In this document: positions 1,021-61,062 of the stretch, piece after piece
Layout of the letters: the number at the start of each line of letters is the position of its first letter
How positions within the stretch are numbered: position 1 is the first letter of the stretch
Assembly: GCA_910584305.1 (NCBI GenBank)
Contig: CAJTZW010000005.1
Span: 37,684-101,683, forward strand
Reading direction: 5' to 3'
Origin: an uncultured Bacilli bacterium
GTDB taxonomy: Bacteria; Bacillota_I; Bacilli_A; RF39; UBA660
DNA length: 64,000 nucleotides
The notes under the pieces: generated by a model
Told to the model about the DNA's origin: nothing
The model's input: only the letters and a program-made list of their open reading frames with translations
Databases searched by the model: none
Made by a program: the position numbers and the translations under genes

Positions 1021-4014
1021 CTATGGTTGATTATAACAACTTATAAATGATGATTTGTTACTAGCATTAGCACACGTACTATTACTGCTATCTAGAATAC
1101 TATTTCCAGTTGCTGTAGTAATACCACTCTTATGTACAAATTCGCTAATACAATATGCTCCATTTGTACAAGTTAAGTCCCAATCTGCATAACCAGCACT
1201 CTCTTTAGCTTGTTTCGTATTATAATCACGAATTTTCTTAATTGCTGTCGCATCTAAATTAAACGTGTATAAAGGTGTTGCCTCTTGGTAAATAGCACTC
1301 CCATCATATCCTCTATTATTTAATATGTTATTTTTAACTACACTAATGCCATTCCAATTTGTTCCTGGATATCTTCCTTTTACTGTGTCATTAAACATTC
1401 CTTCTGACAATCCTGTTTGGTTAGTTGATTTATCACCATTCATACTTGGAAATGGATTCTCTAAGGAAATTGTACGATATATAATAATTTCTGAACCTGC
1501 TGTTTTATAACAACGCTTATAGCAAAAATCGAGAGCATTTTGTAAGGAATTATTCGGATTTGCTCTTTGTTCGCTTATGCAAATACTGATATCCTTTTTT
1601 GGGTAATCAGAGTTATCTGGGCATTTGTATTTACAATTTGGATCATCTCCACATTCTTCTATATTACAAACATAGGCCATACACTGTTTTTGCTCCCCAC
1701 CAGCACCTAAGCAAGCTGTATATCTTGGGTCATCTTTATATTTGTATGTATTACCTTTAACAGAGTCTGCTGGGCAATAAGAGTCATCATCGGATTCTAG
1801 AGGGCAATATAGATTGGTACAAAATTTATCGGCAGTTTGATTTTGACCATTTGCAAACCAACAGTCGGTAATATCCGCTAATGTTCCATCTACTCTTGTG
1901 CAATATCTTCTATCGTCCTCATCGCAAGGATGATTTTTCACGCAATATTCATAATCATGATCTTTCAAACAATCTTCAATAGATTCCCCCGCATGCTTTG
2001 TATTAGGAGGGCAAACACACAATTCTGGATTGGTATAACAAATATCTGAATCACAATAAACTTCTTTCGCCTCTGCGCATGTATTTGGTATTTTTTCTAA
2101 AATTCCTGTTAGATCCATCCCTACATGTTTGGTCCCTGGAGGGCACTTACATTCACCACTTGCTTCTGTAGTTACATTGTATTTGCAAATATAGTCTGTT
2201 TCATTTAATTTTCCTGCCAATTGATTTCCATATCCTAATGGTAAATTTTTAATTTGTAATTTATAATTATTACCAAATAGTTCTTTCGTAATAAGTTTAC
2301 TTTCTTTCCATGAAATCCCCCCTATTGGAAGAACTCCACCGTATTCTGTTATCAAAATGTGATCAGTGTAGGCAGTGGCAAAGTCAGCTATGAATGTTGC
2401 TTTATCCTTACTTACAGCAACATATTGATTTTCTGGTAATGTATACTGGCAATTGTTTGTAATAGTAACCGAGCTACCATTTACAGTAAAACTAGAATTA
2501 CATGATTGATTCAAAGGAATTGGTCCCTTATCTCCTGTCGTATCATTATAATATAATTCGGCGCCACTTCCATTTATATATGTATAATTCGTTTGGTTTG
2601 CTACATCTAAACAAGCTTGTGAAACCGGAGAATCATTATGCATCATCACTTGGCATTTTAATACAGAATGTGTCGTTAATGGATAGGGATCACCTATTGT
2701 TGGCCAAATTAAATTGGTATTCATTGTAACCGCTGGACTTACATTTCCTGGATAAGAAGCATCCGCTTTTTCTGTGCAATATAAACTACACACCCCGGGA
2801 ATTAAGTCAAATTCCTTCTTACCAAATTCCTTTATTCCATTGTCAGTAGATTCGCAACTATCGGCAGTATATGATTCTGTAAAAGTGCTACACTCACGTA
2901 CATTGTTATCTCTTGTGTTACTACAAGCGGTGTCCCCACAGGTTGCTTTATATCTATAACATAAAACTTCTAATCCAACTGTTTTTTCTGTACTAATATA
3001 GACTGGTTCATATAAGAATTCACCGCGCCCTTCAGCTCCAGGTATTATAACAAAAGGCTGGGAATTTATTCCCTCTGTCGATGTGACTATCATTGTTGTT
3101 TTCTTCTGAGTTGCCATAGCAGTAGCAGTTACGGTGACTTTAGTAGTGTTGTCTGGGACTGCGCTACGTGGAAAACTTACAGTAATTGTTCCAGTCTTTC
3201 CAAAAGTTGATTGTGTAATTGTTGCATTCCCACTAATTCCTGAAACAACAGCATTTACTGAACTTATATCTACATTACTTTCTACATTAAATGTTGCACT
3301 GTAAAATCCGTCTTTTAACGTAAATGTTTTTGTGTTATCAGTGAAATTTAAAGAAAGTGAACCTGTTGAGCTACTAGCTATTGTCGTCGCTAGATTGTAT
3401 AACTCCCACACAGCCTTGTCATAGTCATTGTTAGATTCTTCAAAACCCTTTATCATCTTGTCAATGTTATTAAGATTATTACCTATCACCCCTATATAAT
3501 TCCATTGTTTCTCCGCACCTGAGGGTGTTTCGAATCTATTTACTCCAGTTATTTTTGATAAATATAAATTTAATGCAGTTACCTTTACTACCACTTCATC
3601 ATTATCACTTAAACTATATTTGTTTTTGACACTAGTATCTTGTGCAAGTTTGGCAACTCCCATAGCAGCAAGGTCATTAATCTCCACTTGGTTATACTTT
3701 AATTTAAATGAATTTTGGGGGTCAAATATATATGAACCTGTTGTTGGTGGTTCGTACCAATAAAAGGCGCATAACGCTCTAACTTGGTTATTGCCAACAA
3801 TACAATTTTTGTTACTATCATATTCATTTCCAAAAGAAACATACATATCCCATGTTTCTGGTAATGTACCCGTTCCACTTAGTCGTAAATTATCTCCGCG
3901 CTGAAATTTAATACATGAATAAGGATAGACCGCCTTAACTTCGTTACTCCCCACATGCATTGCAATAAGTCCTGTTATTAATATAGTAGCTATCTTTAAA
4001 TATTTTTTCTTCAT
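1021..4014 (-). CDS. large secreted protein: signal peptide, Ig-like Thr/Ser-rich middle, extremely Cys-rich C-terminal half
   Basis: Track ORF 1021..4074. The likelier start is ATG at 4014 (MKKKYLKIATILITGLIAMHVGSNEVKA signal peptide) behind a GGGGGTG RBS. It overlaps the upstream gene's stop by 13 nt. Duplicated CxCPPxTKHxG motif. Confidence 0.75.
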   Translation of the reverse strand: MKKKYLKIATILITGLIAMHVGSNEVKAVYPYSCIKFQRGDNLRLSGTGTLPETWDMYVSFGNEYDSNKNCIVGNNQVRALCAFYWYEPPTTGSYIFDPQNSFKLKYNQVEINDLAAMGVAKLAQDTSVKNKYSLSDNDEVVVKVTALNLYLSKITGVNRFETPSGAEKQWNYIGVIGNNLNNIDKMIKGFEESNNDYDKAVWELYNLATTIASSSTGSLSLNFTDNTKTFTLKDGFYSATFNVESNVDISSVNAVVSGISGNATITQSTFGKTGTITVSFPRSAVPDNTTKVTVTATAMATQKKTTMIVTSTEGINSQPFVIIPGAEGRGEFLYEPVYISTEKTVGLEVLCYRYKATCGDTACSNTRDNNVRECSTFTESYTADSCESTDNGIKEFGKKEFDLIPGVCSLYCTEKADASYPGNVSPAVTMNTNLIWPTIGDPYPLTTHSVLKCQVMMHNDSPVSQACLDVANQTNYTYINGSGAELYYNDTTGDKGPIPLNQSCNSSFTVNGSSVTITNNCQYTLPENQYVAVSKDKATFIADFATAYTDHILITEYGGVLPIGGISWKESKLITKELFGNNYKLQIKNLPLGYGNQLAGKLNETDYICKYNVTTEASGECKCPPGTKHVGMDLTGILEKIPNTCAEAKEVYCDSDICYTNPELCVCPPNTKHAGESIEDCLKDHDYEYCVKNHPCDEDDRRYCTRVDGTLADITDCWFANGQNQTADKFCTNLYCPLESDDDSYCPADSVKGNTYKYKDDPRYTACLGAGGEQKQCMAYVCNIEECGDDPNCKYKCPDNSDYPKKDISICISEQRANPNNSLQNALDFCYKRCYKTAGSEIIIYRTISLENPFPSMNGDKSTNQTGLSEGMFNDTVKGRYPGTNWNGISVVKNNILNNRGYDGSAIYQEATPLYTFNLDATAIKKIRDYNTKQAKESAGYADWDLTCTNGAYCISEFVHKSGITTATGNSILDSSNSTCANASNKSSFISCYNQP

Positions 4015-4025
4015 TCCTACACCCC

Positions 4026-4667
4026 CTAAAAAAGGCTTTCTTTTTTTCTTTGTATATAAATAATTGTTAAACATACTATGATGATTATTGGCAGAATAAT
4101 ATAGTAATAGTTTACAAAGAAGATTATGAGGTAGTCATATATTCCGAGTACTTCTTTTTCTTTTTCTGGTGCTGGTTCTACAGGTTGTTCTTGTTTTAAT
4201 TTACTTACTTCATTTATAAATGTATTATAATCATAATTTATATGTATCCATTTTTGGCAAATACTATTTGTTACTCCTATACAAATGGGATCACTATAAT
4301 ATGGATTATATCCAGGCAAAGTTATATAGTGTGAATATAATCTTTTATTGCTACACTCTCCTGTTCCATATATATCGAATCGATAATTTGTATTTGGGGT
4401 ATACCCATATAATACGAGCTCACTTGATGTATATGCATAATCTCTCTGATTATTTACATCTCTAACTCGAAATTCAGGTTGTAAATTTGTCATAATAATA
4501 TAGAAAGAGACTTGGCCATTTTCTTCTATATAATCATATGTAACTACCACATTTTGTGCCAAAGAAGATAATCTTATTTTCTCTGTATTGCTACACTGTG
4601 CGGATACATGAAGTGGAAATAATAATCCTATAGTCAATGTTATGTACCATAATAATCTATATTTCAT
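4026..4667 (-). CDS. secreted protein with C-terminal TM anchor, FN3-like beta-rich ectodomain (unknown function)
   Basis: 213-aa ORF with GGAGGAG RBS. Signal peptide ...LLFPLHVSAQC. C-terminal YLIIFFVNYYYIILPIIIIVCLTIIYIQRKK. Confidence 0.65.
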   Translation of the reverse strand: MKYRLLWYITLTIGLLFPLHVSAQCSNTEKIRLSSLAQNVVVTYDYIEENGQVSFYIIMTNLQPEFRVRDVNNQRDYAYTSSELVLYGYTPNTNYRFDIYGTGECSNKRLYSHYITLPGYNPYYSDPICIGVTNSICQKWIHINYDYNTFINEVSKLKQEQPVEPAPEKEKEVLGIYDYLIIFFVNYYYIILPIIIIVCLTIIYIQRKKESLF

Positions 4668-4734
4668 TCTGCCTCTCCTCCCATATTATAACATATTTTT
4701 ATTTGTAAACAATGATTTTGCATCTTTTTTTACA

Positions 4735-6303
4735 TTATTTAACAGTATAACTGTATATTTTATTACGAATTTTGAAAACCAATTCTATACTTTCTGCATT
4801 TTTAAGCTCATCTACTACTTCGACATAGTATTCATTAACTAATTTTGCCTTTGCTGGTTTGATTTGCTTCCATCCTAGTTGCATTGTTTTCTTTCTACCA
4901 TCAATGCGATATTCAATATGACCAAACCTACTCATAAATGTATATAAGTCTGTAGTATTATTTTCTTCTGTTATTGTTCCTATAATTTTTAATAGCGCTT
5001 TTTTCTCATTTCCACTAAGTGTTGGTTTTATATATTCATAGGATGAATAGCATTGCATTTCTATACAGTAATTATAGTCAACTCTGAATGTATCTGCAAT
5101 TTCTATACTGTCTATTTTAAATTCCTTATCTCCCAGTATACTCTCTTTTAAATTTACACTTTCTGGCATAGTATATATTGTTTTAGTATCTTGTCTCATC
5201 AGTGATATTGGATTTACTTCCATTTGTATTTGTTTGTTATTATAATCTGTATATATTAATTTTATTTTGTTATCTAAAAATTCAGTTGGGACTTTATATA
5301 TAAATACATAGTCTGTAAAAGTATTTTGAATATCTTGCCCATTATATATAGTTCCCATATCTAACATTTGTTCACTATAAGTTGTTTCGTGATAAAAATA
5401 ATGTTCATTGATATTTAAAACTAGACGAGCAGTATCAAATTTTCTATCTTTAGAAGTATTATTTTGAATATTCATATGGATTATTATAAAAGCTTCTTCC
5501 TCTGACAGTTTATTTCCTTTATAGTCTGTATCAGACGCATAAGAATCTAAAAGTTGAAGCGTATAGTAATTGGTAGTGAAAGCCTCACCTTTTTTATATA
5601 CCTTGTTGTATACACCTACATTCATATATATAAGTAAACTAGTAATCCCTAAAGCTAGTATAACAACAGCCAAAATTATGAATCTATTTTCCTTATAGAT
5701 ATATTTTATATGGCGAATGGCTCTATTGATTTTTCGTTTTGTTTCATCAGAATTTAAATCAACATTTACTTCAAATTCCTCACTATCAACATCTTCTATC
5801 TCTAATTCTTGTAGGTCTTTCGTGAAATCAAATTTTTGTACATTAAATCCTGTTGCACGAATTGCCACAATAACAAATGATACTACCTGCAATCCAAATG
5901 CAGTCGTTAGTAAATCTTGAACTAATTTTAGTGTTCTGACATCTACAAGTTGAATTTCTAAGGAACTGGTTATGGAATAGGAAACTGCATATACAAAGAT
6001 TACAAAGATATAAACTAATAAATTATATATATATAGTTTTACCTTTTTCCCTTTAAATACCATTAACCCTAATATAATTAGGGTTTCTATTAAAATAATC
6101 AGTGCAGAAACATACATTAAAGTATTATACAATTCCCCTGTCAAATCTTTCCCAATTACAGAATTGTATGTGGCCATATATTCATTGTAAAAGCTTAAAA
6201 TCAAATTTGTTTTATACACCAAGTAAAAAGATAGTATTGTCAGAATTAGATGAATTAATTTAAAATGCTTAATTAAAATTGCAAATGGTTTTCTAAGTAT
6301 CAT
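4735..6303 (-). CDS. polytopic membrane protein: N-terminal multi-TM block, acidic cytoplasmic linker, further TM and a large extracytoplasmic beta-rich domain
   Basis: 522-aa ORF with GGGGTGG RBS. Several hydrophobic segments in the first ~165 aa. Linker EIEDVDSEEFEVNVDLNSDE, then TM FIILAVVILALGITSLLIY. Confidence 0.65.
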   Translation of the reverse strand: MILRKPFAILIKHFKLIHLILTILSFYLVYKTNLILSFYNEYMATYNSVIGKDLTGELYNTLMYVSALIILIETLIILGLMVFKGKKVKLYIYNLLVYIFVIFVYAVSYSITSSLEIQLVDVRTLKLVQDLLTTAFGLQVVSFVIVAIRATGFNVQKFDFTKDLQELEIEDVDSEEFEVNVDLNSDETKRKINRAIRHIKYIYKENRFIILAVVILALGITSLLIYMNVGVYNKVYKKGEAFTTNYYTLQLLDSYASDTDYKGNKLSEEEAFIIIHMNIQNNTSKDRKFDTARLVLNINEHYFYHETTYSEQMLDMGTIYNGQDIQNTFTDYVFIYKVPTEFLDNKIKLIYTDYNNKQIQMEVNPISLMRQDTKTIYTMPESVNLKESILGDKEFKIDSIEIADTFRVDYNYCIEMQCYSSYEYIKPTLSGNEKKALLKIIGTITEENNTTDLYTFMSRFGHIEYRIDGRKKTMQLGWKQIKPAKAKLVNEYYVEVVDELKNAESIELVFKIRNKIYSYTVK

Positions 6304-34386: not shown

Positions 34387-35529
34387 CTATTTTTCCATCA
34401 TTTCTATCCATTTTTCTTTTACCACATTCGCGTCATACTCTTTTACTTTTTTACTAGCATTCTTTCCCATAATAAATCTTCTATTATAGTTTGATATAAG
34501 TTCACAAATTCGTTTTGCCATTTGCTCTTTGTCTCTATTTTTTACTAAATATCCATCCCAGTTGTCAGTAATAATCTCACAGGCTCCTTGTGCACTTGTG
34601 AATGATACAGCTGGTATACCGAAAGAATACGCTTCCAAAAGAACTATACCAAAGGATTCTGTATAAGAACTCATAACATAAATAGAGGATTTTCTTAATA
34701 CCTCATTTATATAGTCTCTATTTTGGTATCCATGTAATATAATACTTTTTTCTAAACCATATCCCTCTATCTTACGTTCTAATTTTTCTCTTTCTACACC
34801 ATCTCCAATGATATTTAGGGTCCAATCTGGATATTTACTATGTACAATATTATATACTTCAATTAAATCTTCATATCCTTTTTCCTTAGATAATCTACCT
34901 ACACTTACAATATTTTTGTTTTTGAGGGGAGATTTTTTTTCAGGAAAATAATCAATACTATTTGGAATATATACACATTTACAATTTGTATTTTTTAGTT
35001 TTTCTGTGTAGAATTCCGTCAACTCTTTTGAAACCAAAACAAAATAGTCTAAACCTTGAGCAGATGTAACTAATCTTCTTATATATTTTTTGTTTCCATT
35101 ATGGTGATTATGCTCCCATCCTATTTTAAGAGATGTATTACTCCCATATTTTGAAAGCCATTTGTTGTGAATATCTCTTGTAGAAATAATAATATCACTA
35201 TCACATGATTTAATATATTCAATCATTCTTTCCTTTTTTTGTTTCAAAATCTTATATGCCTTTTTACCTTCTTGTAAAGTACTCATAATTTTTAATTTTT
35301 TTAATGCACTATAAAATTCATTTCGATTGGGCTTCATATCATCAATCAAATATTTTACTTGTATCTTATCATCTAACGCAAATGGTGGTTCATCATACAG
35401 TTTATATGTAGAGACAATGGTTACTTCGTATGTACTTATAAGGGAATTTGCTAACATAGAGATTGCCCTTTCGATTCCACCATATCCTAGGTGAAGTGCT
35501 AAAATTGTTATCTTTTTCATACTTTTCAC
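34387..35529 (-). CDS. GT4-family glycosyltransferase
   Basis: 380 aa. GGIERAI near the N-terminus. C-terminal SYTESFGIVLLEAYSFGIPAVS carries the E-x7-E type motif. Confidence 0.85.
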   Translation of the reverse strand: MKSMKKITILALHLGYGGIERAISMLANSLISTYEVTIVSTYKLYDEPPFALDDKIQVKYLIDDMKPNRNEFYSALKKLKIMSTLQEGKKAYKILKQKKERMIEYIKSCDSDIIISTRDIHNKWLSKYGSNTSLKIGWEHNHHNGNKKYIRRLVTSAQGLDYFVLVSKELTEFYTEKLKNTNCKCVYIPNSIDYFPEKKSPLKNKNIVSVGRLSKEKGYEDLIEVYNIVHSKYPDWTLNIIGDGVEREKLERKIEGYGLEKSIILHGYQNRDYINEVLRKSSIYVMSSYTESFGIVLLEAYSFGIPAVSFTSAQGACEIITDNWDGYLVKNRDKEQMAKRICELISNYNRRFIMGKNASKKVKEYDANVVKEKWIEMMEK

Positions 35530-35626
35530 CTCTATATTAATTATACTTTATATTTGTTTTAGAGTAAAGAAAAGCCGTAGGGTTTCAAAAAAAAGGTGAG
35601 ATTATCACCTTTCCTACATTAGATTT

Positions 35627-37213
35627 TTACTCATTGATTTTGTTAATTTGTGTTAAAAGTTCCTCTTTACTATAGGAAATATTTAGAGTGTCTCCTTCTT
35701 TTACAAATGGAAGAATATGTTGTGCAACTTTGATATCTACTTTATATCTTTGCTTTTCCTTATCTTCTATAAAATAGATGGTATTCCCCTCAATCACTAC
35801 ACTTTGGATAGTTTCTATAGTAATTTCTTTATTTTTTAAGTCTGCATCATTATACTCTATTTTTTCATTATTAAGATAGTTCTTTGCTGCTACTTCGATT
35901 CCGCTACTGGCATCGCTTACCACAACCTTTTGATAATCCTGCACATCTACAAATGCATACATTTTTACTAAATCGGCATTATCCTTAAGTGAAATGACAT
36001 ACGTTGGCTTATTATTTAAATTAATAAGGAGTGGAAAAGTAGCTGTATAATTCATTTGTTGCACTTGACCTTCTGCACTTGCCATTGCACTATATTCTTC
36101 TGCACCTGGAACAGAATAAAACTTAGTTTCTTTCGTTCTCATATTGGTTAAAATAAACCCTAAATTAGATTCATCACTTGCTACAGATGTAATTCCAGTA
36201 TATAAGTATATATCATCTTTCATTGCAATATAATTATATCCATCGGTTGTCATGGTTACATTTTTTTGTCCAAAGATGGAGTTCCAAAAACCGTTTTTAT
36301 AACTACCCCAATCATCAGTTTGTTCAATAATTAATTCAGCACTATATACATGATCTACCCATGTTGGGACATCTTTTATACTATAATATTTTGAGCCTCC
36401 TGTAATTGCATTTAAAATAATAATTCCTTCTACTTCTTCTCTAATTTGAACACCACTATATTTCAGTGTTGGTACAACCCAATATGGATTTCCATCATTA
36501 TCTATCTCAAAGGACTTAGATCCAAAAATCTTTGTCGGATATGAAAAACGAAGTTTCCTATCTAAATCTTCATTCAAAATAGCTGATGGCATATATTTCA
36601 TTCCTTGTTCCAATTTCACAAGTTCTGCTGCTCCCGTTACAGAGTTAACTTTTATATATCCTTTAACTCCCTCCTTATGATTAGATAGATATTTAAAGAA
36701 TCCGTTGTATTCCAATGGTGTTACACGAACAATCTCATCATTGAAGTTAATTTGAGTATATAAATCTGAAACATAAAATTGGGATACCAATTCTGACATT
36801 TGCCCCATAACACGATCTCCGACTTTTCTACTAGAATCCTTATCTAGTAATGGCAAAGAATTAAAGTCCACCTGTTCAACATCCTCTGTAAAATTTCCAC
36901 CTTCATTAATTGTAATACGGTTTGCATAGGATTTAGATTGAAATAGTGGGCACATAATGATATTTACAACAAATATCCCTAAGAATACAATTCCTATTCC
37001 AACAATGTAAAATGATAATAGATTTTCATTATATTTTGTTTTTCGCCTTAGAATTATATTGCTAAAAATACTACAGAGCGTCCATATAGTATATATACTG
37101 ACTAGGTATATCCAAAATCCTATACTTTGTATATTAATGGCAGGCAAGAAAAAGTAATATACAATCATTGCATATAAAATGGTAATGATTGCACTAATGA
37201 TTTTATATTTCAT
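35627..37213 (-). CDS. membrane protein (about 3-4 N-terminal TMs + ~430-aa extracytoplasmic domain), unknown function
   Basis: 528-aa ORF embedded in a glycan locus. I cannot assign a family. Confidence 0.55.
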   Translation of the reverse strand: MKYKIISAIITILYAMIVYYFFLPAINIQSIGFWIYLVSIYTIWTLCSIFSNIILRRKTKYNENLLSFYIVGIGIVFLGIFVVNIIMCPLFQSKSYANRITINEGGNFTEDVEQVDFNSLPLLDKDSSRKVGDRVMGQMSELVSQFYVSDLYTQINFNDEIVRVTPLEYNGFFKYLSNHKEGVKGYIKVNSVTGAAELVKLEQGMKYMPSAILNEDLDRKLRFSYPTKIFGSKSFEIDNDGNPYWVVPTLKYSGVQIREEVEGIIILNAITGGSKYYSIKDVPTWVDHVYSAELIIEQTDDWGSYKNGFWNSIFGQKNVTMTTDGYNYIAMKDDIYLYTGITSVASDESNLGFILTNMRTKETKFYSVPGAEEYSAMASAEGQVQQMNYTATFPLLINLNNKPTYVISLKDNADLVKMYAFVDVQDYQKVVVSDASSGIEVAAKNYLNNEKIEYNDADLKNKEITIETIQSVVIEGNTIYFIEDKEKQRYKVDIKVAQHILPFVKEGDTLNISYSKEELLTQINKINE

Positions 37214-37260
37214 AAATATTTCTCCAATCTAATATATAATTTACTATATATGAAAAAGAT

Positions 37261-38184
37261 TTATGGTCTTTTAAAGTCTTCCCATAAATTTTTTTTGTAT
37301 CTTCCTTCAGTAATTTCTTTTGCTACCATTTCAATTACTTTAGGTGTATCTTCCTTGTAGGTGACTCCTTGCCACTTTGCCTTTGTTGGAATCATCTTTA
37401 CTATAATTGCTTTTTCTCCTATTAGCTTTGCAACCAAATCTGGAATTAAGTATTCACATGTTGTAATTTTATTTGAGTTTTCTTCTAGAAATGGAATAAA
37501 ATTATCTTCTATATGTTTAAAAATACTTGGTGAAAAGCCAAACATATTTAATGATACAGGGCAAGTACTTTCAATTGTAAAGCTTGCCTCTCCACTTAAC
37601 GGGGAAGCAATGATCACACCATCTTTTTTCTCAATATTACTTTCAACCAATCTATTTAATATTCCATTGGTATTATCCAATACAGCTCTTTTTACGCTTC
37701 CATTCTCTGTTAAGGTGTTCTCTACTTCATAGCCTATTACAGCATATTGATTTTCTTCCTGTAGTTCTTGTAAGAAATTGGCTACATCTAAAAAGGCCTC
37801 TCTACCATAAAAATCATCCGCATTTATAATTGCAAAGTTTTCATGAATTGTATCTTTAGCAGCTAGTATGGCATGTGCAGTTCCCCATGGTTTTGTTCTA
37901 CCTTCTGGCACTTTATAACCCGATGGAAGATCTTCTATGTCTTGGAAACAATATTCTACTTGGATATATGGTTCCACCCTACTTCCAATTGTTTCTTTAA
38001 AAATTTCATAATTCTCCTCTTTAATAATAAATACAACTTTGGTAAATCCTGCGAGTATAGCATCATATACAGAGTAATCTATCATAAACTCCTCTGATGG
38101 TCCTACAGGTTCTATTTGTTTAAGTCCACCAAAACGACTTCCCATTCCAGCGGCCATAATTAATAATGTCATATCTTGTTTCAT
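37261..38184 (-). CDS. sugar-phosphate nucleotidyltransferase (NTP_transferase fold)
   Basis: 307 aa. LLIMAAGMGSRFGGLKQ carries the G-x-G-[ST]-R signature. Confidence 0.75.
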   Translation of the reverse strand: MKQDMTLLIMAAGMGSRFGGLKQIEPVGPSEEFMIDYSVYDAILAGFTKVVFIIKEENYEIFKETIGSRVEPYIQVEYCFQDIEDLPSGYKVPEGRTKPWGTAHAILAAKDTIHENFAIINADDFYGREAFLDVANFLQELQEENQYAVIGYEVENTLTENGSVKRAVLDNTNGILNRLVESNIEKKDGVIIASPLSGEASFTIESTCPVSLNMFGFSPSIFKHIEDNFIPFLEENSNKITTCEYLIPDLVAKLIGEKAIIVKMIPTKAKWQGVTYKEDTPKVIEMVAKEITEGRYKKNLWEDFKRP

Positions 38185-38374
38185 ATAATTCCTACTTTCT
38201 TATAGGAAAAGTATAACATAATTTATAGGGGAATGCAAATGGGATTGTAACAAATACAGGGCTTGAGATAATCACGATTTTGTGGTAATATCAAGACATA
38301 GTAAAAGAAGGAATTAATCACAATTTCTTCTTTTTGGTTTAACAACACCAACTTATAAACATGTAATTTATGCG

Positions 38375-38800
38375 TTACTTTATTTTCTTAATTGGGTTTC
38401 TTATCACTATTTTTAATTTACTAATATCACACTTTCTTGAATCATATATTTCGTGGTGTAATTTTGTATTAGTTATATCTAATTCATATCCATTCTCTTT
38501 TACAAAATCGTGCATTAACTTAACAGTTGTTGGCTCATCAATTATAACTGCCAATTTGCATACATTGAACACAAGCACCCTCATCATAAGTAAAAAATTC
38601 AACTCTTGAAAAATCTTGTTTTCTTTTTAGTTGCTTCGCTGGTAGATAGCCCAGTCAAAATCTCTCCTTATTACAAAGTCTGATAATCTAATAATAAATA
38701 TGAAGTGCATAACATTTTTATTATTATAATCAATACTGTCTTTTAATTCATCTTGCCAACAATTACCATTTATCTATGAGGTAATTATATCATATTACTC
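38375..38800 (-). pseudogene. GyrI-like small-molecule-binding domain gene, multiply frameshifted and 5'-truncated
   Basis: Homology is readable across three frames: ...FIFIIRLSDFVIRRDFDWAIYQ* / VEFFTYDEGACVQCMQIGSY / DEPTTVKLMHDFVKENGYELD...HHEIYDSRKCDISKLKIVIRNPIKK. Confidence 0.5.
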
Positions 38801-38810
38801 TATCATTATT

Positions 38811-39119
38811 TTACTCAATAATTTCCGTTAATTCATTATCATATTCACTATAATAATTTGATAACAAATTAAATTCAATAGAATCTATATCATCATTATG
38901 TTTCCAAACCTGCAACGAATATTTATCATCGTTAAAATATATTTTCAAAAATTCATTATCATTACATACATATTTAAAATCATATTTTTGCGATTTAAAC
39001 CAATCAACCCAATTTGTTAATTGCAATACTTTTTCTTGATTTTGTTCATTTTCAATAATAAATTCGATTTTTTCATATAATTTTTCTATACTTTGTGGAT
39101 ATAACTGTTCTTTATTCAT
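38811..39119 (-). CDS. small very acidic protein, unknown (third gene of the Panacea cassette)
   Basis: ATG at 39119 (MNKEQLYPQS...) behind a GGGAGG RBS (the track starts at TTG 39125). ATGAATAA overlap with the stop of the 182-aa gene. Confidence 0.55.
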   Translation of the reverse strand: MNKEQLYPQSIEKLYEKIEFIIENEQNQEKVLQLTNWVDWFKSQKYDFKYVCNDNEFLKIYFNDDKYSLQVWKHNDDIDSIEFNLLSNYYSEYDNELTEIIE

Positions 39120-39660
39120 TGTCAATTCCTCCCTTATTATTATTATTATTATTTGTTATTGGGCAAAAATCATACAACGCATAATTTTCTTGATTATAGT
39201 TCTTATTAGGATATATTAAATGGTGATAATCTATAAATAATACTGAAAATACATTTGATTTTCTAACTCCAAATAATCTAACACCACCACTAATACCTAA
39301 CTGCCAAACATAATATTCATTAATATTATTTTCTATAAATAATTCAAAATCTCTATCACTATAATTATCTCCTTTATAAGATTTATATAATTCTCTAATA
39401 ACATCAATTACTAAAAAATATTCTTTCGTATTTATTGAGATAGAATGAGAATGTTTATTTGTTGCTCTGGTGATATTTTCAAATGAATATTGGGTTAAGG
39501 CTGGAATATCTATTTCAAACAATCGCTTAAATAATTTAAAAAAATGTTTATTATCCTTTAACTTATTTGTAAAATTTCCTGATTTAACACATCTAAAACA
39601 AAATGGAAATAATGAGAAATCAATACTTATATTGTTACTATCTGTACTAAATTTGTTCAT
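39112..39660 (-). CDS. unknown 182-aa protein, candidate toxin partner of the Panacea antitoxin
   Basis: The start overlaps the PanA-like stop by 14 nt. ...ATNKHSHSIS... C-terminal VWQLGISGGVRLFGVRKSNVFSVLFIDYHHLIYP, then a NNNNNN tail. No family recognised. Confidence 0.55.
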   Translation of the reverse strand: MNKFSTDSNNISIDFSLFPFCFRCVKSGNFTNKLKDNKHFFKLFKRLFEIDIPALTQYSFENITRATNKHSHSISINTKEYFLVIDVIRELYKSYKGDNYSDRDFELFIENNINEYYVWQLGISGGVRLFGVRKSNVFSVLFIDYHHLIYPNKNYNQENYALYDFCPITNNNNNNKGGIDNE

Positions 39661-40126
39661 TAAATAGTATTTTTGTAAATGTCAAAAAGATATCAACATC
39701 AGATAATAAATTATTAGAGGCTTCTATTGGCGCTAAACCTTTTCGAGCATTCATCCAAGGTGCTTGATTATGAGAAATGTTTTCTAGTTCATCAGCACTA
39801 TAATTACCATAAATTTCCATTGTTTTATTTAGTGCATTCATAATTTCTTGATTGAAAGAAATGGTTTCAATATTTTCAAGAGATAATAAATTTATACCAT
39901 TATTTTTATACAATGAATAAATTTTTGGATCAACTGGTCCATGAACCCATGCTTCAAATTTATTTTCAAATAATGACTGACTTAAATTGTTGGAATTATC
40001 ATTATTTTGTGCTAAATAAATTCCATAACTAAAATATAATAATTTTTGCAATTTTTTGTGAGTCATTGGTTCAGTATGTAAAAACCACTTTGCAACTTCA
40101 TAAACATCATTTACTGCATTTTTCAT
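39647..40126 (-). CDS. Panacea-domain (DUF4065, SocA/GepA-like) antitoxin-type protein
   Basis: 159 aa. VYEVAKWFLHTEPMTHKKLQKLLYFSYGIYLA...FEAWVHGPVDPKIYSLYK matches the DUF4065 core as I know it. Confidence 0.75.
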   Translation of the reverse strand: MKNAVNDVYEVAKWFLHTEPMTHKKLQKLLYFSYGIYLAQNNDNSNNLSQSLFENKFEAWVHGPVDPKIYSLYKNNGINLLSLENIETISFNQEIMNALNKTMEIYGNYSADELENISHNQAPWMNARKGLAPIEASNNLLSDVDIFLTFTKILFNEQI

Positions 40127-40429
40127 ATATATACACCTCCTATTATCATACTTATTATATCATATTCAAAAAGAGAAAAAAAGATATATATAAGTAATTA
40201 AGTGTAAAGCTTATTATACCATATATTTTCAATAATTAAACATTTTTTATTTTAAATCATCATTAGAATAATATCTAAATATTCTCATGGTTAATCTTCT
40301 TTGCATTTGTGTTTACTATATGCTTAATATCTTTTTTATCAAATTTATTATTCATTTATTTAAATACAAAAAAAGTTAATCCAAATTAACCCTTGCTATA
40401 TAAAGTCGATTAACCCAACTAATTCCCTA

Positions 40430-40498
40430 TGGTGTCCACGATAGGACTCGACCTACCACCTAAAGTTTAGGAAACTTTTGCTCTACACCAATAAGCTA
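40430..40498 (-). pseudogene. tRNA-Arg(CCU)-like remnant (D-arm to CCA; 5' acceptor strand missing, T-loop one nt short)
   Basis: Minus strand reads ta-GCTTattggtgtaGAGC-a-AAAGTttCCTaaACTTT-aggtg-GTAGGtcgagtCCTAT-cgtggac-a-cca. No complementary 5' acceptor strand upstream. Confidence 0.5.
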
Positions 40499-40592
40499 TA
40501 ATATAAATTTATCACTCAATAAATAAAAAAAGCACATTTAAAACTTAAGATTACATCTATATATATTGGGTAGCAAAAAAAAATAGATTACT

Positions 40593-41540
40593 CTATTTTT
40601 CTATATCTTTTTCTGTTTCTTTTACTATATAAATTGGACGTTTTTTTGTTTCTAAATATGTTTTAGCTAAATATTGTCCTATAATTCCCATGCATAATAA
40701 TTGTATACCACTTACAAACAGCAATATACACACCATACTTGGCCATCCACCAACAGGATCTCCAAGAATAAGTGTCTTCACAATAATTACTATGATTGCT
40801 ATAAAAGCAATTAAACACATTAATACTCCTATCACCGCTGCAATGGAAAGAGGAAGAGTCGTAAAGGCAACAATACCTTCTATTGCATATTTAAATAATT
40901 TCCAAAAAGACCACTTTGATTCTCCTGCTACTCTTTCTACATTCTCATATTCCAACCATTTTGTTTCAAATCCAACAAAACTGAATAATCCTTTTGAATA
41001 GCGGTTATATTCTTTTAAAGAGATAATCGAATCTACAACCTGCTTCGTCATTAATCGGTAATCTCTTGCACCGTCTACCATTTCAACTTTAGACATTTTA
41101 TTTATTATTTTATAAAAACATCTTGCAAAAAAGCTTCGGATTGGTGGTTCTCCTTTTCTAGATACTCTTCTTGTCCCTACAGAGTCATATCCTTCTTCTT
41201 TAATAAGCCGAAACATTTCTGGCAACATTGATGGTGGGTCTTGTAAGTCTGCATCCATTAATGTTATATAATCCCCTGTTACATTTTCAAGTCCTGCATA
41301 CATAGCAGCCTCTTTTCCAAAGTTTCTGGAGAATGAAATGAATCGTACTCGATTGTCTTTTTTCGCTAAGTCTTTTATTACTTCTAAAGTTTTATCTTTT
41401 GATCCATCATTTACAAACATAAATTCAAAATCTATTTCTTTCATCTCACTTGCAACTGTTGTAATTTCCTTATAAAAATATGGAAGTGAAGCCTCTTCAT
41501 TATAACAAGATACAATCACGCTAATTTTGTCCTTTTTCAT
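40593..41540 (-). CDS. GT2 polyprenyl-phosphate glycosyltransferase (GtrB/CsbB-like, two C-terminal TMs)
   Basis: 315 aa. ISVIVSCYNEE...VNDGSKD...MDADLQDPP... followed by two TM helices. Confidence 0.85.
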   Translation of the reverse strand: MKKDKISVIVSCYNEEASLPYFYKEITTVASEMKEIDFEFMFVNDGSKDKTLEVIKDLAKKDNRVRFISFSRNFGKEAAMYAGLENVTGDYITLMDADLQDPPSMLPEMFRLIKEEGYDSVGTRRVSRKGEPPIRSFFARCFYKIINKMSKVEMVDGARDYRLMTKQVVDSIISLKEYNRYSKGLFSFVGFETKWLEYENVERVAGESKWSFWKLFKYAIEGIVAFTTLPLSIAAVIGVLMCLIAFIAIIVIIVKTLILGDPVGGWPSMVCILLFVSGIQLLCMGIIGQYLAKTYLETKKRPIYIVKETEKDIEK

Positions 41541-41583
41541 AATTACACCTACATTTATTTACATTTTCAATTCGATAAAATGT

Positions 41584-44370
41584 TTATTCTTTGTTCTTTG
41601 TATAAACTAAATTCAAATAATCAAAAACATTAATTGTTGCATCTAAACTATAAGAATTCTCCAGTTTAAATATACTTTTAATTTCATTCGATAAAATATT
41701 TCTAACGTACACAAGTGATGAAAAATTTGTACATAAAAAGTCATTAGATAAATCTATGTTGTCTCCTAATAAATCAATCATATCTATTATGTAATCCTTA
41801 ACTCCTTCATATATTTCATCTAAACTCTCTAATAATTTGTTATCAAGAATCTCATTTTTATATACAGGGTTATCTTTGGAATCAAACCTTACCAATTGAT
41901 TATAGGGCGCTGTTAAGAATGCCTCTAGAATCATAGAGAATAAAAATACATTCTTCTCTGTTGGCTCCTTTTTGCTATCAAAACAGCAATAACAATCTCC
42001 ACCAAGTTTCTTCGGCTTTATATTATCTGTTAGTGTGAAGTAATATCCATCCATTTTCATTTTGTTTAATTTCATTAAATAATATTGAATTGTCCCAGAA
42101 TATCCTAAATCTACAACAGCAATTTTTGATTTATTATCAAATATTTTACTACAATATTTCTTATAAGTTTCACTTTCTTCTTTAAATTGTTTTAAATACT
42201 TATCAAAGTTTTCTTCCAATATTTTATATACTTCTGTTTTATCCTGATCTAACTTTATAAATCTATCTGGAATTTTACTATCCTCAATACCAAAGCGATT
42301 TTTAAATAGATTATTCATATTCCCTTCAAATCCATTTGAAAGGATTTCCTTTGCATCTGATATAGTATCGATACTAGCAACAGATGCTGAACGCCTTGAT
42401 GTTAAAAAGTACGTATTCGGAATTTCTTTTGTTTTACTTTCTCTACAAAAATCTTTATATAATTTCTGTAAATAATATCCTTCTCTTGCAAGAAATAAGA
42501 GATTATCATAATCTTTTTCTTGTGCATTTTTTTGTAAGAATATTAAAAATTTTAAAATAATTGGCGCTAACATCGTATATCCAAAATCATGAAAATTATT
42601 AATGATTGAATCGCTTGTAATCCTTTTGAACGGAGAATTATAAAGTATTTTATTTACTATTAACCCTAATGACACTTTATCAGCAGTTGTTAAGCACATA
42701 TTTCTAGAATTCATATAGTCACTATATGAGGATAACTTATACATTTTATTTGGCTGCATAATATGGTAAAAGGGTTTTCCTAAATCACATAATTGCTGAA
42801 CATCAGCTTGTTCATTGTCCCCTACATGAATACACGTTTTATCTTTTACATAATTATTGAAATAGTAATCCCAAATACTACCATTATCTTTTCGTAATCC
42901 AATCTCACTAGAAACTAATAACGCAGACCAGCCACTGTATCCACACTTGTTTAACATTTTTTCAATGATATCTGAAGTTAGATACATATCACTTATTAAA
43001 ATAATCGTTTTATTTGCGGCTTTCAATTTATTGTATACATCTAACATGTCTAATCTTGGAATTATATATGAAAGCTCAAGTTCTTTTTCTTTTTCTTTAA
43101 TATCATTCGCTATTGAATTATCAATTTTCAATATTCTCTCTAGATTCGAATATATTTCATTTATATCACAATCTCCAACAAAATTTTTTTCAACCCTAAC
43201 GTTATACTCAGCATTTAGTCTATTGTTTTTGAAATCGCATATTTTATATTTTTCATATACATATTTTTCCAATAAATCAAATAAGGCGGATGGAGTGATT
43301 ATACATCTAGTAATTAGAGTATCAAAAATATCAAATGAAATTATATCATAATTCATTAACGTTTCTATGCTATTACTCCTACTTTTTGTTTCATATTGAT
43401 ATAAATTTTTTAACCCTTTATATCTGAAAGCTTTTCCATTGATATCATATACTAGATATGTATATCCGGAAGCTTTAACTGCTTGTGGGATCATTCTTTC
43501 AATCGCATGGGCTAGCGTTCCGTCTGCTTTTCCTTCTTCTTTTCCAAAATCATCAATTGTATAATTGAAGTTCAAAAAATTTTTTATTGACTTAACTTTC
43601 ACCCAAAAAAATGACCCTACTGAATAATCTATGTATTCATCGCTTAACGAAATATTTAATCTTTGTGCAATTGCATCACAATTTGCTTTATTTTTCAACC
43701 ATGTATGGGCCCAATATGGCATATCGAAATATGTTTCTGGATAAATCAATCCAATTTGGTCATTTGTTTCGAATTGATAAAACATTTTCTTTATTATGTC
43801 ACTGCATCCTAAAACTCCATCTAGCATGTGATTTCTCCAACCATCTTGCTCTTTCCCAGTACGAATGCTTTTCTTCGTATGCATATGAAGTAAATAATCA
43901 TACTCAAGAATTTCCTTTTTAAAAAGGATAAACATTGGGGAAAAATCCCTTCCTATATTTTTTGCTTTTTTGACAATAACTTTATTTACCTTTTTAATCT
44001 GCTCAAAATCTTTTTTTATCTTAGATATATCTTCTTTCTCTTGAACAGAAAGAAATAAATCAAATTTATAAGGAATATTATTTAAATATTCAATAAATTC
44101 TTTACTTAAATCTGTATAAAACAAATGAAGGTGCACAGCAATTCTCTTATCGATATTTTCTAACAATTGTATATCACTTATTTTCATAGCTGGAGAGGTT
44201 GTATTTGTTGCTTCCATTGTAATCTGGTTATTAAACTCTGATATTTTTCGAATGGTTTTAAATCTATTACTTAATCTATTCTTCAATCGTTGTTTTGTTT
44301 CCATCTTTATGGGCAATAATCTATATGTTTTTTTCAATGCTCTTATACTATAGCTTTTTAATTTGTTCAT
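41584..44370 (-). CDS. large fusion protein: rhamnan-synthesis RgpF-like glycosyltransferase domain + HAD-like domain + C-terminal extension
   Basis: 928 aa. IAVHLHLFYTDL...LLHMHTKKS (RgpF-like), then DIISFDIFDTLITR (HAD motif I) and ISDMY...VGDN motifs. Confidence 0.65.
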   Translation of the reverse strand: MNKLKSYSIRALKKTYRLLPIKMETKQRLKNRLSNRFKTIRKISEFNNQITMEATNTTSPAMKISDIQLLENIDKRIAVHLHLFYTDLSKEFIEYLNNIPYKFDLFLSVQEKEDISKIKKDFEQIKKVNKVIVKKAKNIGRDFSPMFILFKKEILEYDYLLHMHTKKSIRTGKEQDGWRNHMLDGVLGCSDIIKKMFYQFETNDQIGLIYPETYFDMPYWAHTWLKNKANCDAIAQRLNISLSDEYIDYSVGSFFWVKVKSIKNFLNFNYTIDDFGKEEGKADGTLAHAIERMIPQAVKASGYTYLVYDINGKAFRYKGLKNLYQYETKSRSNSIETLMNYDIISFDIFDTLITRCIITPSALFDLLEKYVYEKYKICDFKNNRLNAEYNVRVEKNFVGDCDINEIYSNLERILKIDNSIANDIKEKEKELELSYIIPRLDMLDVYNKLKAANKTIILISDMYLTSDIIEKMLNKCGYSGWSALLVSSEIGLRKDNGSIWDYYFNNYVKDKTCIHVGDNEQADVQQLCDLGKPFYHIMQPNKMYKLSSYSDYMNSRNMCLTTADKVSLGLIVNKILYNSPFKRITSDSIINNFHDFGYTMLAPIILKFLIFLQKNAQEKDYDNLLFLAREGYYLQKLYKDFCRESKTKEIPNTYFLTSRRSASVASIDTISDAKEILSNGFEGNMNNLFKNRFGIEDSKIPDRFIKLDQDKTEVYKILEENFDKYLKQFKEESETYKKYCSKIFDNKSKIAVVDLGYSGTIQYYLMKLNKMKMDGYYFTLTDNIKPKKLGGDCYCCFDSKKEPTEKNVFLFSMILEAFLTAPYNQLVRFDSKDNPVYKNEILDNKLLESLDEIYEGVKDYIIDMIDLLGDNIDLSNDFLCTNFSSLVYVRNILSNEIKSIFKLENSYSLDATINVFDYLNLVYTKNKE

Positions 44371-59972: not shown

Positions 59973-60049
59973 TGGTCGGGAAAACAGGATTTGAACCTGC
60001 AACCCCTTGGTCCCAAACCAAGTGCTCTACCAAGTTGAGCCATTTCCCG
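59973..60049 (-). tRNA. tRNA-Pro (UGG)
   Basis: Cloverleaf readable. Anticodon loop ttTGGga. Acceptor cgggaaa/tttcccg. CCA encoded. Confidence 0.9.
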
Positions 60050-60058
60050 ATATAAATA

Positions 60059-60135
60059 TGGTGCGCTCGAAGGGATTCGAACCCCTGACCTTTTGGTTCG
60101 TAGCCAAACACTCTATCCAGCTGAGCTACGAGCGC
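60059..60135 (-). tRNA. tRNA-Arg (ACG)
   Basis: Anticodon loop ctACGaa. Acceptor gcgctcg/cgagcgc. CCA encoded. Confidence 0.9.
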
Positions 60136-60155
60136 AGCTTTTTGTTAAATTTAAA

Positions 60156-60231
60156 TGGTGGCTCCGAGTGGAATCGAACCACCGACACAGGGATTTTCAG
60201 TCCCTTGCTCTACCGACTGAGCTACAGAGCC
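60156..60231 (-). tRNA. tRNA-Phe (GAA)
   Basis: Anticodon loop ctGAAaa. T-arm ggtggttcgattccac. CCA encoded. Confidence 0.9.
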
Positions 60232-60240
60232 AAATATAAA

Positions 60241-60316
60241 TGGCGGTCCCGACGAGAATTGAACTCGCGATCTTCTGCGTGACAGGCAGACGTGATAACC
60301 GCTACACCACGGGACC
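60241..60316 (-). tRNA. tRNA-Asp (GUC)
   Basis: Anticodon loop ctGTCac. Acceptor ggtcccg/cgggacc. CCA encoded. Confidence 0.9.
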
Positions 60317-60320
60317 ATTT

Positions 60321-60397
<77 letters not shown>

Positions 60398-60416
60398 ATA
60401 TATAAAATTATTTAAA

Positions 60417-60507
60417 TGGCGGAGAAACTGGGATTCGAACCCAGGCGCCGGTTGCCCGACCTACCGGTTTTCAAGACCGGACCCTTCAACCACTTGGGTA
60501 TTTCTCC
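60417..60507 (-). tRNA. tRNA-Ser (UGA)
   Basis: 91 nt with a long variable arm. Anticodon loop ctTGAaa. CCA encoded. Confidence 0.9.
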
Positions 60508-60515
60508 AATACATA

Positions 60516-60604
60516 TGGTGCCTAAGGCCGGACTTGAACCGGCACGGGATTTGACTCCCGCAGGATTTTAAGTCCTGTGCGTCTACCAATTTCGCCACTC
60601 AGGC
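60516..60604 (-). tRNA. tRNA-Leu (UAA)
   Basis: 89 nt with a long variable arm. Anticodon loop ctTAAaa. CCA encoded. Confidence 0.9.
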
Positions 60605-60626
60605 AACAATTAATTAAAAAAAATAA

Positions 60627-60702
60627 TGGTGTCCCGTACAGAATTCGAATCTGTGACCCTTTGATTAAAAGTCAAATGCTCTACCAGCTGAGCTAACGGG
60701 AC
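60627..60702 (-). tRNA. tRNA-Lys (UUU)
   Basis: Anticodon loop ctTTTaa. Acceptor gtcccgt/acgggac. CCA encoded. Confidence 0.9.
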
Positions 60703-60718
60703 ATATACAAATTTTAAA

Positions 60719-60794
60719 TGGCTGCCTCGGCTAGACTCGAACTAGCGAAATGCCACAGTCAAAGTGTGGTGCCTTACCGCTTGGCTACGAGGCA
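60719..60794 (-). tRNA. tRNA-Gln (UUG)
   Basis: Anticodon loop ctTTGac. Acceptor tgcctcg/cgaggca. CCA encoded. Confidence 0.85.
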
Positions 60795-60809
60795 ATCTAA
60801 CACGTTAAA

Positions 60810-60893
60810 TGGTGGAGGGAGATGGATTTGAACCATCGAACCCGAAGGAACAGATTTACAGTCTGCCGCGTTTGACCACTTCGCTACCCCTCC
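60810..60893 (-). tRNA. tRNA-Tyr (GUA)
   Basis: 84 nt with a long variable arm. Anticodon loop ctGTAaa. CCA encoded. Confidence 0.9.
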
Positions 60894-60901
60894 ATATAAA
60901 A

Positions 60902-60977
60902 TGGTGCCGAAAGCAGGAATCGAACCCGCAACCTACTGATTACAAGTCAGTTGCGCTACCAGTTGCGCCATTTCGGC
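60902..60977 (-). tRNA. tRNA-Thr (UGU)
   Basis: Anticodon loop ctTGTaa. Acceptor gccgaaa/tttcggc. CCA encoded. Confidence 0.9.
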
Positions 60978-60985
60978 AAAAATAA

Positions 60986-61062
60986 TGGTGGGCGATATAG
61001 GACTCGAACCTATGACCCCCTGCTTGTAAGGCAGGTGCTCTAACCAACTGAGCTAATCGCCC
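60986..61062 (-). tRNA. tRNA-Val (UAC)
   Basis: Anticodon loop ctTACaa. Acceptor gggcgat/atcgccc. CCA encoded. Confidence 0.9.

Follow-up and report, generated by a model that had tools for sequence, protein, structure and literature searches.

Does a Panacea antitoxin gene that runs, in overlapping frames, into two genes of no recognised family mark a new toxin–antitoxin system, and which of its neighbours would then be the toxin? The question is raised by a locus in a 64,000-nucleotide stretch of DNA from an uncultured Bacilli bacterium (GenBank assembly GCA_910584305.1, contig CAJTZW010000005.1), referred to below as the window, to which all coordinates refer unless a locus is named. Three overlapping open reading frames (ORFs), here called genes A, B and C, lie head-to-tail on the minus strand at 38811-40126, behind a single predicted promoter. 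We find that gene A encodes a Panacea protein, that gene B belongs to a widespread and uncharacterised family whose sampled members all follow a Panacea gene, and that gene C accompanies this pair throughout one clade of gut bacteria.

Layout of the cassette

The features of the cassette are as follows.

39647..40126 (-): gene A (panA), 159 aa, stand-alone Panacea/DUF4065 protein (Pfam PF13274)
39112..39660 (-): gene B, 182 aa, candidate PanT toxin (phrog_24206 match; Panacea gene directly upstream)
38811..39119 (-): gene C, 102 aa, acidic, clade-specific third component (counted from ATG 39119)
40142..40170 (-): predicted cassette promoter with an extended -10 element, TG at 40162-40161 and TATAAT at 40159-40154 (TGaTATAAT, 40162-40154), within TTGAATATGATATAAT (sequence reading and promoter scan)
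40135..40141 (-): Shine-Dalgarno of gene A, AGGAGGT, 8 nt before ATG 40126 (sequence reading)
39128..39133 (-): Shine-Dalgarno of gene C, GGGAGG, 8 nt upstream of ATG 39119, within the K-G-G codons near the C-terminus of B
38796..40351 (-): largest extent of the transferable unit (blastn DNA similarity to cassettes elsewhere)

A first-pass annotation, made from the letters alone, had described these ORFs, and its coordinates, overlaps, quoted motifs, poly-Asn tail and GGGAGG ribosome-binding site are all present in the sequence. The promoter motif is kept upstream of PanA at loci L021, L001/L002 and L035-L037 despite otherwise unrelated flanks, and we infer from the sequence that it functions as a promoter; AGGAGGTG, at the Shine-Dalgarno of gene A, is likewise kept in homologous cassettes. 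The stop codon of gene A lies 14 nt inside gene B (overlap 39647-39660). Because of this overlap and because gene B has no Shine-Dalgarno of its own, gene B is probably translationally coupled to gene A. At the other end, the gene B stop (TAA) shares ATGAATAA (39119-39112) with the gene C ATG. Near the C-terminus of the clade's B proteins a ..GG.. motif (K/E-G-G) is conserved and coincides with the embedded gene C Shine-Dalgarno, a pattern that would fit a constraint imposed on B by the ribosome-binding site of its neighbour.

The three products differ in charge. The isoelectric point (pI) is 5.1 for A, 9.6 over residues 1-70 of B and 4.35 for C, which has a net charge of -12, in agreement with the basic N-terminal half and the strongly acidic third protein described at first pass. 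All three genes evolve under purifying selection, as judged from pairwise dN/dS against eight homologous cassettes (A 0.09-0.24, B 0.10-0.32, C 0.07-0.39). These values, together with the recurrence of same-order homologues on many unrelated contigs, argue that the three ORFs are more than chance.

Gene A encodes a stand-alone Panacea protein

Gene A, which carries KLQKLLYFSYGIYLA and EAWVHGPVDPKIYSLYK, matches the Pfam SocA_Panacea profile PF13274 with E=1.1e-15 and 59 bits (gathering cut-off 25.7) over profile positions 1-112 of 113, so that the profile search bears out its first-pass assignment to Panacea/DUF4065. It also matches phrog_1281 (E=2e-36). Because its score against the NCBIfam SocA equivalog NF047745 is 61.9 bits, below the cut-off of 190, we regard its product as a PanA-type protein and not as SocA itself. 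The protein has no N-terminal helix-turn-helix (HTH) or any extra domain, and we predict it to be an antitoxin or a sensor. Stand-alone Panacea antitoxins neutralise their toxins by direct contact and may double as the sensor that sets them free, while multidomain ones neutralise through an attached module (Ernits et al. 2023, PMC10440598). The NetFlax authors regard Panacea primarily as a sensor, with neutralisation often carried out by an attached PAD1, ZBD or Phd-C module (PMC10440598).

Gene B belongs to an unannotated family linked to PanA

The 182-aa ORF, which includes ATNKHSHSIS, VWQLGISGGVRLFGVRKSNVFSVLFIDYHHLIYP and the poly-Asn tail, could initially be placed in no family, and no Pfam family was found either for the protein itself in a library scan or for 27 full-length and 45 core-domain relatives. 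It does belong to an unannotated family, phrog_24206 (function unknown), which it matches over nearly its full length with E=2e-10 and which is matched by 45 of the 45 sampled core domains of its relatives (best E=8e-23). The NCBIfam model NF046006, MAG6450_fam, covers residues 56-148 of gene B with 19.4 bits, below its cut-off of 40, and is matched by 14 of 27 relatives at E<1 (best E=1.9e-7). On these sequence matches the core of B appears to share a distantly related domain with the MAG6450 family, B itself scoring too low for membership; that family is named after a conserved hypothetical protein of Mycoplasma agalactiae to which no function has been assigned. As a side observation, an AAT-repeat expansion at 39134-39151 (-) gives six consecutive Asn in the tail of B, against two or three in its closest homologues.

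A word-indexed search with gene B returned 39 relatives, all unnamed, and an exhaustive profile search returned 280 representatives (50% clustering) at E<=1e-3, 207 of them at E<=1e-10, nearly all 150-240 aa long. Cluster look-ups place family members in the Bacillus subtilis group, B. pumilus, Priestia, Listeria monocytogenes/innocua and the Streptococcus equinus/infantarius/gallolyticus group. Their records all read "hypothetical protein" except for one Listeria entry labelled "6-phospho-beta-glucosidase".

The linkage to Panacea is strict. A SocA_Panacea gene stands immediately upstream of B throughout the sampled contexts, which range in identity from 88% to ~25%, and in all contexts read the two genes are 0-14 nt apart or overlap. 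The contexts comprise contigs of gut metagenome-assembled genomes (MAGs) and metagenomes (L001-L016, L021-L023 and L030-L038), with 5 loci contributed by a metagenome scan, as well as Desulfosporosinus (L017), viral contigs (L018/L019), the Streptococcus satellite phage Javan219, prophage ends of the Bacillus subtilis group (L026-L029) and three remote representatives (P0115, P0144 and P0199). This neighbourhood survey supports the tight coupling to the Panacea gene that the overlap had suggested. In Javan219 the gene upstream of the B homologue is annotated "putative prophage protein (ps3)", and in Bacillus the PanA-B pairs at prophage ends lie beside XhlA, holin and amidase genes. A tblastn search of B gave no match among plasmids and, among phages, two Streptococcus satellite phages only. 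Far from falling into a housekeeping family, which had been named as one outcome that would overturn a toxin assignment, the B family is unannotated and PanA-linked throughout, and we judge B not to be a housekeeping protein.

Two groups of relatives show further genes or domains near the pair. At L026-L029, a convergent 62-aa gene with the look of a small winged helix lies 25 nt downstream of PanA-B (4586-4774 (-)), and an upstream HTH_17 gene (3014-3259 (+)) also always accompanies the pair; kept across four flanking contexts, these two genes may be additional components of the module or may belong to a larger mobile segment. At L040-L042, remote PanA-B pairs, in which B has 238 aa and a zinc-ribbon-like tail, adjoin ToxN, HipA_C-like, PemK and integrase genes; this small islet of toxin-antitoxin or defence genes occurs on contigs of at least 20 samples. 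Some remote B members have long C-terminal tails with CxxC pairs (e.g. P0144, P0175 and P0179).

Gene C is confined to one clade

Gene C belongs to no family in Pfam, NCBIfam, PADLOC or PHROGs, and a scan of its members one by one against Pfam gave scattered chance-level matches. Its AlphaFold2 model is confident (pLDDT 86) and shows two helices followed by a four-strand meander; a Foldseek search of the PDB found no structural neighbour for it (best E=0.7). A profile search collected 34 clusters of ~100 aa, all unnamed, and IMG/VR held no relative.

The distribution of gene C follows the cassette. No relatives were detected outside PanA-B-C cassettes, which fall into one clade of uncultured gut Bacilli/"Tenericutes". 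All contexts examined from C homologues contain PanA-B-C; from the side of B, no locus of the gut Bacilli/"Tenericutes" clade lacks gene C, down to ~40% B identity, and one of these contigs had been assigned to Muribaculaceae by binning. The remoter PanA-B pairs of Desulfosporosinus, the viral contigs, Javan219, Bacillus, P0115, P0144 and P0199 are without it. Because members of the wider family (Bacillus, Listeria, Streptococcus satellite phage, Desulfosporosinus and viral contigs) lack gene C, the sequence comparison points to PanA-B as the core pair and to C as a clade-specific addition. The tripartite cassette suspected at first pass therefore stands for one clade, where the third gene occurs with the pair at every locus, and does not extend to the wider PanA-B family.

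Within the C-bearing clade, B begins 5-13 residues before a conserved DFS motif, whereas C-less homologues (e.g. L017-L020 and L026) have a basic, probably disordered N-terminal extension of 15-35 residues ahead of it. The loss of this extension thus correlates with the presence of C, which we regard as suggestive. The length of PanA is 151-168 aa irrespective of whether C is present.

Three other identities were considered for gene C. That it is a diverged copy of B was rejected by hhalign; a toxin was dropped on account of its acidity and its absence from most of the family, and a transcriptional regulator on account of its acidity and the lack of an HTH. Separately, at L030-L034 a 222-aa gene without a Pfam match (4305-4973 (+)) shares 17 nt with the end of gene C and is followed by a ClpB-like AAA+ gene; it may be a fourth cassette gene in this sub-clade.

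The cassette is a mobile unit

We compared the window from 35001 to 44000 by blastn with 38 fetched loci. Every match has one end at 38796-38837 and the other within 40087-40351, and no match to any of these loci was found in the flanks. As far as sequence comparison can tell, the cassette behaves as one discrete, mobile piece: DNA similarity stops at its borders, and the promoter is carried along with the genes. This agrees with the mobile, accessory origin proposed initially.

The surroundings are those of the decayed islet between glycan loci that the first-pass annotation had described. The cassette sits in a 2.4-kb gap (38185-40592) between GT2 and RgpF genes on one side and an NTP-transferase gene on the other, and the gap has a G+C content of 22-25% against 28-33% in the flanks. 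It holds a frameshifted, 5'-truncated pseudogene of a GyrI-like small-molecule-binding domain at 38375-38660 (-), which matches Pfam PF06445 with E=4.9e-7 over profile positions 80-151 of 155 once one frameshift is repaired. It also holds a degenerate tRNA-like element at 40441-40498 (-), ~315 nt upstream of panA, which scores 33 bits against the Rfam tRNA model (gathering score 29) and has a CCU (Arg) anticodon loop, a T-arm and a 3' ...ACCA, with no 5' acceptor strand; ARAGORN makes no tRNA call at this position. The remnant may be the leftover attachment site of an integrated element. Taken together, the composition of the gap, the pseudogene, the tRNA remnant and the border-limited similarity fit a past insertion of foreign DNA. 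Elsewhere the cassette has as neighbours a Mob_Pre relaxase with a serine recombinase, tyrosine integrases, and Fic/RhuM, ToxN, HipA-like and PemK genes.

Apart from the cassette, the window contains 12 tandem tRNA genes at 59973-61062 (-) (Val, Thr, Tyr, Gln, Lys, Leu, Ser, Met, Asp, Phe, Arg and Pro); rRNA-adjacent arrays of this kind are typical of low-G+C Firmicutes.

Fold and conserved residues of gene B

The AlphaFold2 model of gene B is confident as well (pLDDT 87, pTM 0.84). It places a long helix (37-55) in the N-terminal region, followed by β72-74, α79-99, α102-112, β118-121, β128-134 and β137-144, and a less ordered tail. The β-α-α-β-β-β order of the core (residues ~72-150) equals that of RelE, β-α-α-β-β-β(-α) (PMC11980606). 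A Foldseek search of the PDB gave no significant match, yet RelE-superfamily toxins (HP0894, archaeal RelE, RelK, RelE2, HigB, YoeB and YafQ) make up 18-19 of its top 50 chains. The same model found nothing usable among the viral structures of BFVD.

Across 125 diverse B members (~21% mean column identity) D144 is invariant, and N32, H70, H72, R128, H147 and N156 are at least 90% conserved. R128, D144 and H147 are conserved at the strands where catalytic residues would be expected in a RelE-type toxin, and H70 and H72 are conserved in addition. The HigB of Proteus vulgaris has a C-terminal catalytic D-Y-H and YoeB an H-Y; the D-Y-H-H that closes the last strand of B, with an Arg on the middle strand, presumably resembles these RelE-family active sites. 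Judged on the model, the RelE/YoeB resemblance of B is a fold-level hint, and a RelE-like ribonuclease (RNase), to which we give about an even chance, is our leading mechanistic hypothesis for B and not a classification.

Function of the cassette: favoured explanation and alternatives

We consider it fairly probable that the locus is a PanAT-type toxin–antitoxin or abortive-infection cassette that is mobile, has its own promoter and carries an extra gene, with B probably an RNase-like toxin and C an accessory neutraliser or helper. Toxicity and RNase chemistry of B, neutralisation by A and any role of C are predictions, which would combine as follows. A would bind B and neutralise it directly. 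If A were lost, or if a trigger engaged A as a sensor, B would be freed and growth would arrest, the most likely effect being a block of translation, probably by RNA cleavage. The residues H70, H72, R128, D144 and H147 would fit a metal-independent endoribonuclease. C, acidic and made in step with B, would bind B or the A-B complex, most likely as a second neutraliser or stabiliser within its clade and less likely as a chaperone.

Several results weigh against this explanation. The Foldseek matches to the RelE superfamily are weak (E 1.3-4, probability <=0.12, target-normalised TM <=0.47), and all sequence-profile tests are negative: Pfam searches with 27 full-length and 45 core-domain B members at E<=10 gave no RelE, ParE, HigB, YoeB, YafQ or Gp49-type family, and PDB profile searches with close full-length, diverse full-length and core-domain alignments gave chance matches only. 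An hhalign comparison of the diverse B alignment with P. vulgaris HigB, for which an approximate sequence was used, yielded a non-significant P=0.21, although it chose the W…R register that had been noticed by eye. The vague likeness to RelE/YoeB noted at first pass recurs as a hint in the topology and among the Foldseek neighbours, and lacks a significant match. Alternatively, the residues of the H-x-H…D-x-x-H pattern could bind a metal. PADLOC 2.0 has no model for A, B or C, its scan giving a single chance-level JetA match for B (E=0.015) and none for A and C. Gene C shows no detectable similarity to an antitoxin, immunity protein or chaperone in the Foldseek search of the PDB or the per-member Pfam scan, and its absence from most of the family means that it is not needed for basic PanA-B function. 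Finally, in the study of Kurata et al. (2022, PMC8832971), many proteins that had been predicted bioinformatically as PanTs proved "not toxic" in E. coli.

The same data can be arranged in other ways. The three components might split the functions, with PanA mainly a sensor or regulator and C the blocker of the active site of B, a nucleic-acid mimic in the manner of barstar or other RNase inhibitors. The argument that Panacea is primarily a sensor, often with an attached neutralising module (PMC10440598), points this way, as do the high acidity of C (charge -12), its translational coupling to B, the fact that it is never found apart from PanA-B, and the missing basic extension of B in the C-bearing clade. 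We nevertheless find such a division rather unlikely: C-less pairs with a PanA of similar length are the majority of the family, so that PanA alone must suffice there, and C has no structural or sequence similarity to any inhibitor. A bolder form, in which sensing (Panacea, responding for example to a phage-protein trigger) and neutralisation (the acidic, new-fold C) reside on separate polypeptides, B founds a new BECR-like RNase branch with a dedicated N-terminal domain and the whole is an obligate three-protein PanAT, seems to us unlikely. Equally unlikely, in our judgement, is a B that is toxic by another chemistry, as a ParE-like gyrase poison or as a metal-dependent hydrolase or nuclease with the ligands H70, H72, D144 and H147. 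H-x-H plus D/H is a common metal-binding pattern, and the missing RelE-family profile match also speaks for this; against it, the weak structural neighbours of B are RNases and not ParE or metallo-enzymes, its domain is small with a single sheet, and we know of no ParE toxin with the conserved His/Arg/Asp cluster. Proteins of the RelE/ParE fold can inhibit gyrase instead of cleaving RNA (PMC10440598; PMC11980606), and PanA is already known to partner ParE-type toxins (PMC8832971).

It is also conceivable, and in our view quite improbable, that PanA-B(-C) is no toxin–antitoxin system at all and serves phages or mobile elements in anti-defence, non-toxic superinfection exclusion or regulation, with Panacea as an adaptor. 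The family does occur at the ends of prophage lysis modules, in satellite phages and on viral contigs, where morons of many functions reside; the founding Panacea protein, SocA, is a ClpXP adaptor for proteolysis and not a classical antitoxin, and the predicted PanTs that proved non-toxic on testing would fit too (PMC8832971). The tight overlapping two-gene architecture, its strict co-inheritance across large sequence distances, neighbours that are other toxin-antitoxin genes (ToxN, PemK and HipA-like) and the invariant, enzyme-like residue set of B argue against it. We retain the PanAT-type cassette with a toxic B as the preferred explanation.

What is new

PanAT systems, their varied "hypothetical" toxins and occasional third genes were known already (PMC8832971). 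This locus adds a PanA partner family, new in the sense that it is uncharacterised (it already exists as phrog_24206), and a domain-less third gene that is fixed in its clade. The finding is well supported bioinformatically and not surprising in principle.

Panacea antitoxins attract study because no other toxin–antitoxin systems swap partners to such an extreme, and because they may act as phage sensors. To these we add a well-defined, widespread and unannotated partner family, present in prophages and satellites of Bacillus subtilis-group bacteria, Listeria monocytogenes and streptococci, which offers strict PanA linkage, a confident fold model and obvious residues to mutate. Through its Bacillus and Listeria homologues, the family can be tested in native hosts that are amenable to genetics, and the contrast between PanA-B and PanA-B-C could be used to study how the tasks of sensing and neutralising are shared out in Panacea systems. 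Should B prove to be an RNase, it would bring to the RelE-like fold a sequence family that present profile libraries miss.

Comparison with known systems

Among established systems, the type VI SocAB pair of Caulobacter shares the Panacea domain of its antitoxin with our cassette. It differs in that gene A falls below the SocA equivalog cut-off, that B is unrelated to SocB and matches no SocB model in Pfam or NCBIfam, and that nothing in the cassette suggests a proteolytic-adaptor mechanism. Toxin–antitoxin–chaperone (TAC) and paaR-paaA-parE systems resemble it as three small co-transcribed genes that supply a toxin, an antitoxin and a helper or regulator. Gene C, however, is not SecB-like (no Pfam or NCBIfam match and no SecB among its Foldseek matches) and has no HTH, and PanA carries no obvious C-terminal chaperone-addiction extension of the TAC type.

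With RelE, HigB, YoeB and YafQ (BECR fold; PMC11980606), B shares its predicted β-α-α-β-β-β core and probably also conserved basic and His residues on the last strands. Unlike these toxins, which are half its length, B carries conserved stretches on both sides of the core, a 70-residue N-terminal region (DFSxFPFCFR, FTNKLKD) and a segment after the strands (LIYPxxKYNQxDY..FCP); its partner is Panacea and not RelB, HigA or YefM, and no match in sequence or structure is significant. The core domain of B is shared by NF046006 (MAG6450) and PHROG 24206, both of them function-unknown bins.

A further comparison is with PanAT systems themselves. Of the 88 PanT clusters, none was identified as the B family in the portion of Dataset S1 of PMC8832971 that was searched, and this portion contains no B-like entries of the Bacillus subtilis group or L. 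monocytogenes. Two of the listed clusters were considered as candidates for the B family and set aside: T4, which is of a membrane/DUF334 type, and T9 (Listeria phage B025), which is MazF-like. Like published PanATs (PMC8832971, PMC10440598), the cassette has a stand-alone Panacea protein, the antitoxin first, overlapping frames, a setting in mobile elements and prophages, a "hypothetical" partner and room for an accessory third gene. It differs in that the partner family is uncharacterised and that the third gene is domain-less and present at every locus of its clade, while published third genes are enzymes, helicases, proteases and nucleases found at small fractions of loci (PMC8832971). Kurata et al. 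define PanATs by A|T order, a spacing of <=100 nt and conservation across species (PMC8832971). Here we find a PF13274 domain, a 14-nt overlap and a pair kept in gut Bacilli MAGs, Desulfosporosinus, the Bacillus subtilis group, a satellite phage and viral contigs, and conservation stops at the borders of A-B-C, within the PanAT limit of <=3 genes for a conserved neighbourhood. Because order, spacing and cross-species conservation are as described there (PMC8832971), the cassette falls within the operational definition of a PanAT.

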